A DNA stretch of 64,000 nucleotides from Candidatus Iainarchaeum sp. (lineage in GTDB: Archaea; Iainarchaeota; Iainarchaeia; Iainarchaeales; GCA-2688035), in the NCBI GenBank assembly GCA_017610205.1, contig JAFCCL010000003.1, positions 62,353 to 126,352 on the forward strand, given 5' to 3'. Numbering within the stretch: the stretch's first letter is position 1; every line of letters begins with the position of its first letter. This document shows, in pieces, positions 21,380 through 64,000 of this stretch. The position numbers and the translations under genes were made by a program. Below the pieces are notes generated by a model. That model was not told the origin of the DNA. It did no database searches and saw only the letters and a list, made by a program, of their open reading frames with translations.

Positions 21380-22840
21380 ATGGTTGGAAAAGACATTTTA
21401 CATGTTAAAGAGGCGTTGACCTTTGATGACGTTCTACTTGTTCCTGGTTCAAGCAAAATTTTGCCAAAAGACGTTAATCTAAACACAAGGCTTTCAAAGA
21501 AACTAAAAATTAACATTCCTCTGGTTTCTGCTGCAATGGACACTGTTACTGAATCGCAGACAGCAATTGCAATTGCAAGAGAGGGTGGAATTGGAATAAT
21601 TCACAAAAATTTAAACGCAGAACAGCAGTCGGCAGAAGTAAGCAAGGTTAAAAGAAGCGAATTTTTGATTGTAAGCAATCCACTGTGTGTAAGCCCTGAT
21701 AACTCCTTACAGCAGGTTTTTGAATTGCAGAAAGCAAAGGGCATTGGAAGCTTTCCTGTTGTAAAAAACGGAAAGCTTGTTGGAATTTTGACCCAAAGAG
21801 ACCTTTCCTTTGAATCGGATTTTTCAAAAAAGGTTTTGGAACTTATGACAAAAGACGTTGTAAGCATTGACCACAAGCCAAGCATTGATGAAGCAAAGGA
21901 AATTTTGCACAAGTACAGGATTGAAAAATTGCCAATAATTGATTCAAGTGGAAAAATTACCGGAATGCTTACTGCAACAGACATTAGAAAGCAGGAGCTT
22001 TATCCAAATGCTGCCAAGGACAAAAAAGGCCAGCTTGTTGTAGGTGCTGCGGTTGGAGTAAATGACAGGGAAAGAATTGGAAAACTTATTGAAGCAGGGG
22101 TTGACACCATAGTTGTTGACACCGCTCACGGCCACAGCAAAGGTGTTGTTGAAGTAGTTAAACGCTACAAAAAACAATTTGATGTCGAGCTTATTGCGGG
22201 AAATGTTGCAACACCAGAAGCAGTACATGACCTTGCATCAGCCGGAGCAGACGCTGTAAAGGTAGGTGTTGGGCCAGGAGCAATTTGTACTACCAGAATA
22301 ATAAGTGGTGTTGGCGTTCCGCAATTTACTGCCGTTCTTGAATGCAGTAAAGCGGCAAAAAAATACAATGTTCCAATTATTGCCGATGGTGGCATTCGCT
22401 ACAGTGGCGACATTGTTAAAGCCTTGGCTGCAGGGGCTTCAAGCATTATGCTTGGCTCGCTGTTTGCAGGCTGTGAGGAAACCCCTGGCAGGACGGTTTT
22501 TCTTTACAACAGGAAATTTAAACAGTACAGAGGAATGGGTTCTTTGGGGGCAATGCAAAAGGGCGGAAAGGAAAGATACTTTCAAGGCGATGTAAGTGAT
22601 GCAAGCAAGCTTGTGCCTGAGGGTGTTGAAGGAATTGTTCCCTACAAAGGAATGGTTAGTGAAATGGTTTTCCAATTGCTTGGAGGGCTTCGTTCAGGAA
22701 TGGGAATGATTGGAGCAAAAGACATTGCTACCTTGAAAAAGAACACTAAGTGGATTAAAATTACTGCTGCAGGAGTAAAGGAATCACACCCTCACAATAT
22801 TAATATTACTGAGGAAAGCCCAAATTATTCAGGAAAGTAG
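21380..22840 (+). CDS. guaB: IMP dehydrogenase with CBS pair
   Basis: [37 protein letters not shown]; ATG at 21380 (ORF track extends upstream). Confidence 0.96.
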
Positions 22841-22854
22841 TTATTTTTTGTTTT

Positions 22855-23535
22855 TTAAGGGGTTAATTCTAACTCGTGGCGCTCAATATACTCTCTTAAT
22901 TTAGTTTTTACCCTTGATATTCTACTTTTAACTATTGAAACATTCTCGCCCAAATGTTTGGCTGTTTGTTCTAATGTCCTAGGAGACCTGTCTGAGTATA
23001 CATAAGATTCTCTAATTTTATAACGGTATGCAAAAGTTTTTTTTGACTTTTCATCAATTCCGATTTTTTTTAAAATATTCCCAACTACATTAAACACCCC
23101 TTGTTCAGGCATTTCAACTTTTGCCCTTTTGTCAACCATTTTGAGAAACATTTCAAAAGACCTTGTTTGAGCCAACTTTCTTTCATATTTTTCCTGTCTT
23201 AAAATATTACGCATTGCATTTTTTGCTGTTCTCAAAAAATAATGTCTTGTTTTCCGAACAGACGGCATTCCTGCAGCAGTCATGATGTGTATCACGGCTT
23301 CTGAAATCATTTGGTCATGAAGTGAATTTTTTTCACTAGGTTTTTTATCCCAGGGTGATGCCTTTTTTACATATGGTTTCTTTCGTGCATACCTTTCTGC
23401 CATTTTTTCCAGAATAGGCATGATTGGCTCTACAAATTTAGCATATCTTCTTTCTCCTTCTGCTTTTGGCATCTGCAGTCTTTTAGCAGTCTTAAATCCC
23501 ATTACTCTCTTTTCCGGCCTATTTCTTAACACCAT
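22855..23535 (-). CDS. Sigma-70-like protein (region 2-like and region 4-like HTH), divergent
   Basis: ILEKMAERYA...DQMISEAVIHI...YFLRTAKNAMRNILR; C-terminal RTLEQTAKHLGENVSIVKSRISRVKTKLRE. Confidence 0.65.
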   Translation of the reverse strand: MVLRNRPEKRVMGFKTAKRLQMPKAEGERRYAKFVEPIMPILEKMAERYARKKPYVKKASPWDKKPSEKNSLHDQMISEAVIHIMTAAGMPSVRKTRHYFLRTAKNAMRNILRQEKYERKLAQTRSFEMFLKMVDKRAKVEMPEQGVFNVVGNILKKIGIDEKSKKTFAYRYKIRESYVYSDRSPRTLEQTAKHLGENVSIVKSRISRVKTKLREYIERHELELTP

Positions 23536-23591
23536 AACACAATTAGTTCACTGCTGATTAATAATCTTTTCTAAATAAATTAGTTTTTGCT

Positions 23592-24291
23592 TTACGCAAT
23601 CCCTTTCAAGTAAGCAAGCCTTTTTTCTTCTTCAAACCTTTCAATTGCATACCTTAGCATAGTGCGTGGCATTTTCTTGTAGTGCTTTTTTCAAAAACTT
23701 TTCTTCCACTGCCAAATCCCTTTTTCCAACTTCTCTTAACATCCAGCCAACTGCTTTGTGAATGAGGTCGTGTTTGTCGTGCAAAAGAATTTCTGAAATT
23801 TTTAACGTGTCGTCAAAATCGTTGTTTTTGATAAATGCAAGCGTTGAAATTATTGCAATCCTTTTTTTCCAAAGTTTGCTTGATTTGGCAAGCTTGTACA
23901 AAACCTGCCTGTTCTTTTTCATTAAATACACTCCCACAATCTTTGGAGCAGTTAGGTCTACTAAATCCCAGTTGTTTACTCCCTGCAGGTTTTCAAAATA
24001 AAAATCAAATACCTTTTTTTTCTCAGCATCGTCTGCTTTTTCAAACTTTTCTACCAGAATCAGCAATGCTACAAGCCTTTCCTCGTGAATTTTTGAATTC
24101 AAAAAAGGCTTTAGTTTTTGCAGTTCAATTTCACTGAATTTTTTTGCAACCTTTCTTTGCTCTCCAACACTTGCCCCGATAAAAACGTCGCCTTCACCAT
24201 ACTGTCCCTTTCCTGTTTTGAAAAAACCCTGAAGTATTTTTGCCTTTTCCGGGTTAGAATGAATTGCAATTTCTTGCTTTAGAGAAATCAT
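23592..24291 (-). pseudogene. AlkD-family DNA alkylation repair enzyme, frameshifted near the 3' end
   Basis: FFKTGKGQYGEGD, NNWDLVD, IHKAVGWMLREVGKR; conserved tail MPRTMLRYAIE lies in another frame after an A6 run (23686-23691). Confidence 0.85.
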
Positions 24292-24426
24292 TTAAAAACC
24301 AACATTACTTCTTTGCCGCAAGTCCATTCAGAAGCTTTTTTTTTATTTAAAATAATTAGGCCTGTTTTCCATTAAAAGTTGTTACTTATTCCTTTTTTCC
24401 CCTCCGAACTATTATGGGAATTAGTT

Positions 24427-25020
24427 CTATTTTTCTGAAAGCATTTCCTTCAATTTTTTTCTTGCATTGAAGATAACCCTTTGAGCTGTTCCTGTTGGAA
24501 CGCCAAAATGTGCAGCGGTTTCCCTGTATTTCTTTGGAGTGTTTCCTCCAAGGCCTGTGTGGTGGAGAAACATTGCCTTGTCCCTTTGGCTTAAATCAGA
24601 AACGTCCACAAGCATTTTTACAACCTTTATTATTTCCTTCTCATTTGACCTGCCTAACTTGTTCAAAATATTCTTTGTTCCTGGGTTTCTGTTTGAACTA
24701 GTTGTGATATATTCCCTGATGGTTCTTCTGTAGCTTCTTTCAGCTAAGGCATCGTTTAGCATAGAATGTCTTGCAATAACTATTGCAAAGTTTTGTTTGG
24801 GTCTTCCTTTTTGATAATTGCCTGTTCCGGAAACAATTTTTAAGGTGGCCTTTGCCAAATAATCTTCTGCCAGTTCACGCTTTCCGTTTGCAATCCTTAG
24901 AGCCATATGCCCTAACGTTTTCTCAAATGGCTTAACAAATCGGTTGAACCTTTCTTCCGCAACATTCTGTTTCTTTGGCCATTTTTTCATCCACGCAGGG
25001 TTTGCTTTTTTCTTTGCCAT
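24427..25020 (-). CDS. Sigma-70-family (ECF-like) factor
   Basis: Region 2: LGHMALRIANG...LAEDYLAKATLKI...FAIVIARHSML; region 4: LSQRDKAMF...GLGG...YRETAAHFGVPTGTAQRVIFNARKKLKE. Confidence 0.75.
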   Translation of the reverse strand: MAKKKANPAWMKKWPKKQNVAEERFNRFVKPFEKTLGHMALRIANGKRELAEDYLAKATLKIVSGTGNYQKGRPKQNFAIVIARHSMLNDALAERSYRRTIREYITTSSNRNPGTKNILNKLGRSNEKEIIKVVKMLVDVSDLSQRDKAMFLHHTGLGGNTPKKYRETAAHFGVPTGTAQRVIFNARKKLKEMLSEK

Positions 25021-25179
25021 AAAAGAATTTAACATTCAACTATTTAAATAAATAGTGCAACAGGATGGTTTTGAATAAATGGATTGCAGTGTAAGATATT
25101 CAAACCAGCATTAGTACCAGCTATATACTAATGTTGTTAAATTTTGTTGTTCTTAAAGTATTCTATTAACTGTAACAGT

Positions 25180-26649
25180 TTAAATTTTTCCCGTTAGCTG
25201 GGTGGTGAGGCTGTCGTGCAGTATTTGGTAATATTGTTGGTTGCGGTGTTTGCTGGTCATGTATAGGGATGCTTGCATGGCATAGCTTTGCATGTGTTTT
25301 GTGCTTCTGTTTTGTTGGCTGATTTTGCGTTTTAGGACTTCGTGTCTTAGGTCTCGTTCTGCTCTGTTGTTTGTGGGGTCAACGTATGGGTATTCGAGGA
25401 AGGTGAACCACTTGCCTTGTTGTTTAAGGATGTATTTTTTGAGGCGCAGGGTGTTTTTTCCAAACCATCTGTTTTGTCGCCTGTTTTTTTCTCCTAATAG
25501 GGTTAGGATTTCTGTGTCGTATTTTTGTCTGAGTTCTTTGGAGCAGCCGATTTCGCGTTTGTCTTTTTTTGCTTGGCTAAAGGGTTGCATGATTTTTTCT
25601 ACAAGTGTTTCGTAGTCTCTTTTTTCCTTTTTTGTTTTGAAGTAGTGCTTGGGCTTTTTTGCAAGCCTGGATAGGTGTTCCCAGCACTTTTGCTGTTTTT
25701 TGCTGGTTTTATTGTATGCTGCAAGCGCGTCAGAGATTGTAACGCAGTCTTTGTTGGTTTTTAGGGAGCATGCTGTTTCCGAGTTTCGTTTTTCTGTTAT
25801 TTGAAAGTAAACTGTTTGTGCTGTGCTTGCAACCCATAGCCAGTTTAGTTTTCCGTTTTTTTGCCACCCTGTTTCGTCACGATGCACGAACAAGGCCTTT
25901 TGTATTTCTTCCTCAAGATTTTTGTAATCTTCTTTTAGGTAGTCTTTGAGTCGTTGCAGGGTATTGCTTACTGTTGCAGGCGAGATGTCCAAGCTGAAGA
26001 TGGTTGAGAACAGTTCGCTTATTTTCCTATCAGACATGTTAAAGCCTGTGAACAGCACTGATATGAGGATTGCTGTATTTAAGTCAAACTTGCTGCCAGG
26101 CAAAGCGTCAGGTAGCCTTGGAATAACCTCTTTCTTGCAGTCCAGGCAGTAGTATGCTCAGATCTTGTTGAGTACGCGTTCAAGTGTTGGGGACTTGATG
26201 TGGATTGTCGTGCGAAAATACTTTTTCTTCTTTCTTGTTATCCTTGTTCCTCCACAGCAAGGGCAACGCTTCATAGTAACGTCTCTCTCCCTATCATGGA
26301 CTTTTGGCCTGGAGTTGCGCAGGTTCTGTTTAGGTTTTCCCTGTTCTGGTTTCAACGCTTCCTGCACTTTGTTCCTCAAACCAGGTTTCAAATGGGGTGG
26401 GATACTGCCTGAAGGGGTGTTCTCGTTCTGATATTTTCGCAGCTCTCCTAAAAGCCGCTTATTTTCCTTAAGTAAGAACATAAGCTGATCTTTAAACTCG
26501 AAAATAATCTTGTCCTTTTCAGCGATGATTTTTCTTTGTCCAGCAACTATCTCTTTTAGTACAGTAACCTGTTCAGCAATCTTCTTTTCCAGTTCTACAG
26601 TGTTAGCTTCAAAGCGTTCTGTTATTTTGCGAAGTTTAGCCTTGTTCAT
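25180..26649 (-). pseudogene. IS66 transposase with a single in-frame TGA
   Basis: Coiled coil, PSGSIPP, CPCC/CLDC zinc finger, DETGW, SD, QKCWEHL, PTNNRAERDLR; the two ORFs are in frame across TGA at 26158-26160. Confidence 0.88.
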
Positions 26650-63573: not shown

Positions 63574-64000
63574 ATTCCAGCTGATCCTGCTGGAGGATAC
63601 TGCTATCGAAATCCGATTTAGACATGCAAGTCTTAAAGACGTATACGGCGTCTTTGGCGGACGGCTCAGTAACACGTGGGTAATCTACCCTTGAGATTGG
63701 TAAATCCCGGGAAACTGGGGATAATGCCTAATAGGCAATTGGCACTGGAATGTCCTTTTGCCCAAAGCTCTTGCACCATGCAAGCAAGCGCTCAAGGATG
63801 AGCCTGCGGTGGATTAGGTAGTTGGTGGGGTAAATGCCCACCAAGCCGTTGATCCATACGGGCCTTGAGAGAGGTAGCCCGGAGAAGGACACTGAGATAA
63901 GGGTCCTAGCCCTACGGGGTGCAGCAGTCGCGAAACCTTTACAATGCACGAAAGTGTGATAGGGGGATTTCGAGTGCAAGCTTTGCTTGCTTTTGCCAAG
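63574..64000 (+). rRNA. rrs: Archaeal 16S rRNA, 5' part (truncated by window end)
   Basis: ATTCCAGCTGATCCTGCTGGA, CATGCAAGTC, GCTCAGTAACACGTG, CCTACGGGGTGCAGCAG. Confidence 0.96.

Follow-up and report, generated by a model that had tools for sequence, protein, structure and literature searches.

Two divergent ECF-sigma-like genes flanking alkD on an archaeal chromosome, possibly re-purposed as transcription regulators

The DNA considered here is a 64,000-nucleotide stretch (the window) of contig JAFCCL010000003.1, positions 62,353 to 126,352, from assembly GCA_017610205.1 of the archaeon Candidatus Iainarchaeum sp. Its subject is a pair of open reading frames (ORFs) that resemble bacterial sigma-70 factors of the extracytoplasmic function (ECF) type. 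The minus strand carries three genes between 22.8 and 25.1 kb: ORF-B, alkD and ORF-A. ORF-B (24427..25035) has 202 amino acids (aa) and ORF-A (22855..23535) has 226, including an insertion at about residues 50-70 of its N-terminal domain. The gene alkD (23641..24291), which encodes a DNA alkylation repair protein of HEAT-like repeats (PF08713, E 7e-55), sits between the two. A preliminary description, made from the letters of the window, had seen two highly diverged sigma-70-like genes flanking alkD with an IS66 element alongside. The layout is as it described, and the two products are collinear at 19% identity. The two strings it quoted, LAEDYLAKATLKI and FAIVIARH, are both found within ORF-B. 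Translation of ORF-B probably begins at the second ATG (25020), giving 197 aa, because that is the length of the public gene call. Each gene has a TATA-like string on the minus strand ahead of it: ATTATTAAT (23557..23565), centred about 26 nt 5' of the ORF-A ATG, and TTTATTTAAATA (25041..25052), centred about 26-27 nt 5' of the second ATG of ORF-B. A promoter-to-ATG spacing of about 26 nt is typical of leaderless archaeal genes. As read from the sequence, both strings are consistent with such promoters, and their weight is limited by how frequent TATA-like strings are in AT-rich spacers.

The first question is whether these really are sigma-like proteins. The NCBIfam model TIGR02937 (sigma70-ECF superfamily, 165 positions, curated cut-off 42.9 bits) aligns with both over nearly its whole length, positions 3-165 in ORF-B (36.7 bits, E 3e-9) and 13-164 in ORF-A (28.2 bits, E 1.3e-6), with both scores under the cut-off. 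The Pfam models that the preliminary description had proposed for checking its claim go only part of the way. ORF-B scores 15.1 bits (E 0.02) with Sigma70_r2 and 17.0 bits with Sigma70_r4_2, below gathering scores of 24 and 25.7, and ORF-A scores 16.5 bits with Sigma70_r4 (gathering score 24.1) and has no match in a Sigma70_r2 scan. The connection to the family is made by intermediates. ORF-B is 31% identical to a paralog on contig C11 of the same genome which passes Sigma70_r2 narrowly (24.3 bits), and the gathering score of that model is reached by five of the six close subfamily members scanned (P0005 31.3, P0006 24.3, P0007 34.5, P0010 45.5 and P0011 24.3 bits; P0009 falls below).

A profile built from four sequences (ORF-A, ORF-B, the C11 paralog and P0002) extends this picture. 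Searched against 1.84 billion representatives, it matches 1,054 proteins at E <= 1e-3, of which 15 reach E <= 1e-10 and 8 reach E <= 1e-30. Four proteins from the tail of these matches were scanned; all four pass Sigma70_r2 and two pass Sigma70_r4_2 and Sigma70_ECF. Against the PDB the profile has seven matches at E <= 0.01, every one a sigma factor and six of them named ECF (SigE, SigH, SigW and others). The close homologs are few: ORF-B finds one relative, P0002, at 65% identity, and ORF-A finds only itself. The protein-cluster neighbours of ORF-A are unnamed 'hypothetical protein' sets, with one sigma-70 cluster at rank 18.

The structure models lead to the same family. AlphaFold models built on 97-row alignments have a mean confidence (pLDDT) of 90.1 for ORF-B and 82.7 for ORF-A, and each consists of two helical domains with a linker of low confidence between them. 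A Foldseek comparison of the ORF-B model with the PDB gives nothing but ECF sigma chains in the first 14 places, each at probability 1.0, the best being SigH (5zx2_F, E 6.7e-4). In the ORF-A comparison an integrative-model entry takes first place, sigma factors fill ranks 2-9, and the best E is 5e-3. The intermediates that pass Sigma70_r2, together with these models, place both proteins in the sigma-70 ECF family and support reading them as two-domain proteins with sigma-2 and sigma-4. We also considered whether they could be stand-alone regulators of the LuxR/GerE type, with only a helix-turn-helix (HTH), and rejected this. Neither ORF has a GerE match at E <= 1; sigma models cover both from region 2 on, and each has a modelled N-terminal helical domain. 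The region-2-like segment and region-4 HTH reported in the preliminary description are therefore borne out, with a predicted sigma-2-like domain in the N-terminal halves.

The second question is whether the genes belong to an archaeon at all. The genome (G000 in our comparisons) is 1.37 Mb in 24 contigs, 92% complete and 0.6% contaminated. Its archaeal small-subunit ribosomal RNA gene begins at window position 63574, about 39 kb from the sigma-like genes, and its sole TFB gene lies on the same 126-kb contig about 52 kb from them. There are two TBP genes and one gene for the large subunit of RNA polymerase (RNAP), of the Rpo1N type, so the bin is without a bacterial beta-prime. The chromosome is archaeal, as the preliminary description had it.

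Sigma factors are a bacterial hallmark, which would by itself suggest a chimeric assembly or a bacterial contaminant. We give this almost no credence. The genes stand between archaeal TFB and 16S genes, and their composition is native: measured against 828 ORFs of the genome, the z-scores of ORF-A and ORF-B for GC, GC at third codon positions (GC3) and codon usage are all within +/-1.1. This means that they have long stayed in a 1.4-Mb genome without being lost. The layout is repeated in independent assemblies. In G006, of the same genus, IMPDH is followed by a convergent sigma-like gene and then alkD, and G007, of another genus, has a tandem sigma-like pair adjoining IMPDH, without alkD. Native composition, these syntenic copies in sister genomes, and five paralogs on four contigs of G000 make a chimera unlikely, and we consider the assembly of the segment sound. 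Genes scoring over the TIGR02937 cut-off are also present in genomes of the order that consist of only one or two contigs (G038, G179, G037). The one other point for contamination is a relative on a record titled as a Chloroflexi metagenome-assembled genome, JAFCCG010000034.1. That contig carries the same pair of sigma-like and PIN genes as the C11 locus of G000 (48% and 80% identity), and its ORFs are letter-identical to those of contig C10 of G004, a genome placed in the same archaeal genus as G000. Since identical ORFs occur in a genome of this genus, we read the title as a labelling problem and not as a bacterial donor.

Upstream of ORF-B is the IS66 element that the preliminary description had noticed, its degenerate transposase gene split between two minus-strand ORFs: the DDE part of an IS66-family transposase (25180..26103, 307 aa, PF03050, DDE_Tnp_IS66, E 1e-30) and a separate N-terminal part (26158..26649, 163 aa, a weak zf-IS66 match at E 0.06). 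A transposase immediately upstream raises the idea that ORF-A and ORF-B arrived with it as the cargo of a mobile element or virus, and phage sigma families do match weakly (phrog_1740, E 4e-6 against ORF-B). We consider it very unlikely. The transposase ORFs are compositional outliers (the DDE part with z +2.8 for GC3 and -1.8 for codon usage, the N-terminal part with +2.3 and -3.0), but the sigma-like genes are not. A second, partial IS66 copy in the genome (G000:C16:33489-34638) is 87% identical to window 25172-26321, and the stretch common to both copies stops about 140 bp before ORF-B. The element is compositionally foreign next to native genes and its shared part ends short of them, so its adjacency is best taken as incidental. 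In addition, where the sigma-like/IMPDH layout recurs, in G006 and G007, the stretches read contain no IS66-like ORF, and a search of a viral contig collection with the four-sequence alignment found no relative of the subfamily. ORF-A has no PHROG match, and the matches there are go no further than generic phage sigma families.

ORF-A and ORF-B are not alone in this genome, which has five near full-length sigma-like genes on its four contigs concerned. The most canonical is on C10 (1372-2280, 302 aa), with 66.7 bits for TIGR02937, over the cut-off, and 32.1 bits for Sigma70_r2; it may represent the sigma-like family that is more widespread in the order. On one side it has a RIO-type kinase gene and on the other a 186-aa ORF of unknown family, beyond which is an ORF of 150 aa that we guessed to be a histone fold, without Pfam support. 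The C16 paralog (1225-2151) has an extra N-terminal HTH and adjoins an MCM gene; a TAA splits it into ORFs of 195 and 106 aa. The first copy of the tandem in G007 is likewise split into two frames. ORF-A is 45% identical to the copy beside IMPDH in that genome.

We surveyed 215 genomes of the phylum, but 196 of them come from one order, that of this archaeon, and only 19 from outside it, so the survey is uninformative on other orders. TIGR02937 scores over its curated cut-off in 39 of the 196. With the threshold set at E <= 1e-11, which leaves all four archaeal control genomes without a match, it is found in 32 of the 196 and in one of the 19. The sole match outside the order (G211:C75:1746-2420) is the strongest of all, at 130 bits in a 491-aa open frame; the genome is fragmented (0.6 Mb), and this could be a recent transfer or contamination. 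Unlike this broader set, the subclade of ORF-A and ORF-B is narrow and divergent. A profile of its 13 members finds 14 of the 196 genomes at E <= 1e-6 and is strong only in G000, G004, G005, G007 and G165; among 41 relatives the genes are present in nine, G000 included. The four-sequence alignment finds two loci when searched against genome contigs, and a metagenome scan with ORF-B finds only four distant loci, at 24-60% identity over partial stretches.

In a maximum-likelihood tree with eight chosen bacterial-type ECF proteins as the outgroup, the subfamily is monophyletic (support 100/99). The three G000 paralogs in the tree fall in three separate subclades, each with partners from other genomes, and the duplications are therefore old. 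ORF-B and P0002 share a long stem (1.21). ORF-A and ORF-B thus belong to a narrow, divergent, fast-evolving subclade, and Pfam by itself would miss both. We infer a bacterial ancestor for the subfamily from the way it joins a large set of bacterial-type ECF sigmas.

These genes evolve quickly next to their neighbours. Between G000 and G004 the sigma-like gene is 48% identical and the neighbouring PIN gene 80%; between G000 and G007 it is 45% and IMPDH 71%; between G000 and G006 it is 25% over 97 aa, with alkD at 66% and IMPDH at 85%. The nonsynonymous rate (dN) is 0.37-0.52 in the sigma-like genes versus 0.10-0.25 in the neighbouring genes. The ratio to the synonymous rate (omega) is 0.04-0.47 by two methods, and these values are rough because dS is saturated (maximum-likelihood dS up to 11.7; NG86 failed for alkD). 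Saturation means that omega can tell us only about upkeep; within that limit the sigma-like genes are maintained under loose purifying selection.

Conservation is uneven along the proteins. We compared columns between 84 bacterial-type proteins from the tail of the profile search and the 13 archaeal subfamily members, and the subfamily is less strict at those positions of region 2 that bacterial-type ECF proteins conserve most. Position 58 is D in 95% of the tail and keeps that residue in 54% of the subfamily (ORF-B has D). Position 61 is Q in 90% and 38% (ORF-B A), position 62 is E in 61% and 46% (ORF-B K), position 90 is N in 90% and 54% (ORF-B H), and position 97 is R in 65% and 62% (ORF-B L). 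Position 83 is W in 85% of the tail and in none of the 13, where it is mostly F or Y (F in 62%, and in ORF-B). The best-kept part of the subfamily is the region 4.2 HTH, with T173 and A174 at 92% each, F177 at 85%, and T183 and I188 at 77% each; the string here is GTVKSRI in the tail and GTAQRVI in ORF-B. The subfamily also has an N-terminal motif of its own, of the type AE-x-RY-xx-FV-x-P. At region 2.2, a string D/E-L/M-x-Q-E/D/Q is kept in five members (P0004, P0005, P0010, P0011 and P0014), at positions which we take to contact beta-prime in bacteria. ORF-B is the most derived member of all, with most signature residues replaced (A61, K62, H90, L97), and P0002, also 197 aa long, has the same derived residues except at position 90.

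One could argue from this that the genes are decaying, functionless leftovers of horizontal transfer, ORF-B especially. Their divergence is very fast (25-48% identity against 66-85% in neighbouring genes), their spread is patchy both among the relatives and across the order, copies are broken in G000 (C16) and G007, and ORF-B has lost most of the signature. We think decay rather improbable all the same. ORF-A and ORF-B are uninterrupted, of full length and modelled with confidence as two-domain proteins, the omega estimates are below 1, and syntenic copies persist across genera. P0002 shares the derived residues of ORF-B at 65% identity and the same length, and the native composition speaks for long residence without loss in a small genome.

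We favour the view that these are domesticated sigma-fold transcription regulators which bind DNA through the sigma-4 HTH, and would put its probability at about 0.55. An ancestral sigma gene would have been acquired from bacteria and duplicated long ago, and long residence would have given it host-like composition and archaeal-looking promoters. Each product has a sigma-2-like helical domain, joined by a flexible linker to the sigma-4 HTH. In a cell that has only archaeal RNAP, TBP and TFB, such proteins would most likely serve as sequence-specific transcription regulators, with the sigma-4 recognition helix binding an operator and the retained sigma-2 domain acting as a module that binds a partner or DNA. 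They would not be true promoter-specificity subunits. The preliminary description had offered two functions, a stand-alone DNA-binding regulator or a factor for the RNAP of a bacterial partner. The first is plausible because the region 4.2 HTH is the best-kept part and the signature positions of region 2 are relaxed; for the second we found nothing. No anti-sigma domain, the usual though not defining companion of ECF sigmas, turned up in the 92%-complete genome in a search of just two families, zf-HC2 (PF13490) and RskA_C (PF10099), and no co-oriented candidate anti-sigma ORF lies next to ORF-A or ORF-B.

Several points weigh against this view, and they should be stated together. ORF-A and ORF-B each miss every curated family cut-off when scored alone, and in the Foldseek comparison of ORF-A with the PDB there is no match at E <= 1e-3. 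The query-normalised TM-scores are low, 0.29-0.35 for ORF-B and 0.21-0.29 for ORF-A, with root-mean-square deviations of 11-22 A. We attribute the low global scores to a probably variable angle between the sigma-2 and sigma-4 domains. Two copies of the family are broken, one in G000 by the TAA in C16 and the other the split first copy in G007. ORF-B may be losing or changing its function, given its replaced signature residues and long branch. The sigma-2 domain has been retained for a long time, which is unaccounted for if the HTH alone were needed. Several members retain the canonical D-L-V-Q-E of region 2.2, and a docking prediction on the clamp of Rpo1N passed its mark, if weakly. The retention of sigma-2 and region 2.2 and the weak docking pass leave room for RNAP binding.

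RNAP binding is a third option, absent from the either/or of the preliminary description: sigma-2 could dock on the coiled-coil of the archaeon's own Rpo1N clamp, and the proteins would then be accessory or alternative promoter-specificity factors working beside TFB and TFE or replacing them. The clamp coiled-coil of Rpo1N is the homolog of the bacterial beta-prime clamp helices. Every deep branch of the subfamily retains the sigma-2 domain, the five members listed above keep the region 2.2 string, and the coiled-coil (about residues 220-270 as we place it) shows little or no variation at most positions in 29 genomes. A complex of Rpo1N 1-340 (29-row alignment) and ORF-B 20-118 (13-row alignment) was predicted, the archaeal side of a check that the preliminary description had proposed. 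It was graded 'weak support', with a median of 0.34 when the best of three controls reached 0.01; the three runs share at least 69% of their contacts, and the pLDDT of the partners is at least 78. Of 80 solved complexes 58 reach the mark it passed, as do 2 of 110 mismatched pairs. However, only 7 of those solved complexes passed at 0.60 or under, along with both passing mismatches, and on those counts such a score is more often wrong than right. The output names no interface. The predictor's memory of solved sigma/beta-prime complexes could also yield a pass. The candidate contacts vary in the subfamily (D58 in 54%, Q61 in 38%, with A61 and K62 in ORF-B) though Rpo1N is invariant, and the genome retains TBP and TFB. 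Because the coiled-coil is invariant but the contact residues opposite it are variable, we rate docking on RNAP as unlikely, if still to be taken seriously.

The position of one family member might seem to help the case for docking. In G005 (C12 565-2115), P0010 (200 aa) lies 43 bp 3' of the TFB gene on the same strand. The TFB of G000 is 98% identical to that of G005, but about 470 bp downstream of it hold no long ORF where G005 has P0010. The linkage was seen once and is not conserved, and we have dropped it as evidence. Among several orthologs the spacer to the upstream gene is just 34-43 bp. A more elaborate form of docking would be a hybrid initiation, in which sigma-2 sits on the Rpo1N coiled-coil, the site of TFE and Spt4/5, and sigma-4 reads a DNA element, all on top of TBP and TFB. 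We hold this to be doubtful.

What remains of the earlier proposals is that the proteins act on the RNAP of a bacterial partner or host cell. Their family resemblance to bacterial sigma factors is all that suggests it, along with the canonical region 2.2 and 4.2 strings in some members. By eye there is no export signal, the N-termini being basic with a conserved, cytoplasmic-looking motif, and the neighbourhood has no hint of a delivery system. ORF-B does not have the signature region 2 residues, and the published hosts of DPANN archaea are mostly other archaea (PMC8204110). We regard action on a bacterial polymerase as extremely unlikely, and the domesticated regulator as the better account of the same proteins.

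The surroundings of these genes deserve a brief description. IMPDH (guaB, 21380..22840, plus strand, start codon estimated) is convergent with ORF-A, and closes a purine-biosynthesis neighbourhood spanning window 1-22840 with a purB-like lyase, purT, purD, purA, guaB and a bifunctional purH (AICARFT/IMPCHase type), as well as an ABC-type ATPase gene and an adjoining membrane-protein gene. The 3' end of alkD appears to be frameshifted at a run of six A, about 23686-23691, so that the annotated frame stops early; the alternate frame (23592-23690) encodes a C-terminus, KKHYKKMPRTMLRYAIERFEEEKRLAYLKGIA, which is kept in the G006 ortholog. This may be either a genuine truncation or a homopolymer error in the assembly. 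Elsewhere the genes next to family members serve ordinary housekeeping in archaea (MCM, fibrillarin-like, RIO kinase, TFB). Bacterial-type repair genes also recur beside them: alkD in G000 and G006, and uvr genes in two genomes from another family of the same order, with uvrC, the sigma-like gene and uvrB in that order at G096:C22 and uvrC directly upstream of the sigma-like gene at G100:C160. With no more than three or four loci, some related to one another, we treat this as a lead rather than a result.

The closest known proteins are the bacterial ECF (group 4) sigmas, such as SigH (5zx2_F) and SigE (9m9d_F) of M. tuberculosis, SigW (5wuq) of B. subtilis and sigma-E (1or7) of E. coli. Like them, ORF-A and ORF-B have sigma-2 and sigma-4 in about 200 aa without regions 1.1 and 3, and they resemble them in the near full-length model alignment, the profile matches to PDB chains and the top structural matches; most subfamily members also have the GTVKSRI-type signature of the region 4.2 HTH. 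Unlike them, they live in a host without bacterial RNAP and with no anti-sigma domain detected for the two families searched, they score below the curated cut-offs, W83 is found in 0/13 and D58 and Q61 are relaxed, and they have the N-terminal motif of their own and archaeal-looking upstream regions. A comparison with TFB, or eukaryotic TFIIB, is also natural: these too are initiation factors based on HTH, and the TFB HTH of this genome matches TIGR02937 weakly (C17:32871-32969, E 0.004). TFB, however, has a zinc ribbon and two cyclin folds, whereas ORF-A and ORF-B lack both and align to sigma models over their whole length, and the genome keeps its canonical TFB besides. Sigma and TFB have been proposed to be distantly homologous (PMC8131849).

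Sigma-like genes in such archaea are not new. Rinke et al. are said to have found sigma-70 genes in DPANN single-cell genomes in 2013. Castelle et al. 2021 (PMC8204110) described sigma-70 genes in DPANN (fam00359), mainly in Woesearchaeota; in that paper mis-binning is excluded, no anti-sigma factors are reported, and the mechanism is given as unknown. This agrees with the remark in the preliminary description that such genes had been noted before, and our counts across the order are in line with it. Like the genes portrayed there, those described here resemble sigma-70 and occur in small genomes of archaea whose initiation machinery is TBP, TFB and an archaeal RNAP. Because Castelle et al. 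reported the phenomenon, ORF-A and ORF-B add members to it and not the phenomenon itself, but they are new and unusually divergent members. Our search of the literature on archaeal sigma factors found no experimental study in print.

The division between sigma factors on one side and TBP and TFB on the other is the textbook divide between bacterial and archaeal initiation. The long retention of sigma-like genes in archaeal genomes prompts one to ask whether an initiation module from bacteria can function with an archaeal polymerase, or be re-purposed around it. This locus adds evidence that such genes are native and under selection, as well as a weakly supported hypothesis of docking on the Rpo1N clamp. 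It also supplies objects for testing the question: two intact, divergent paralogs with confident models, and a delineated subfamily with orthologs. If the hybrid initiation were true, this would be an archaeon with a bacterial-style layer of promoter selectivity laid over TBP and TFB, and the recurring repair-gene neighbours would fit a damage-response regulon.

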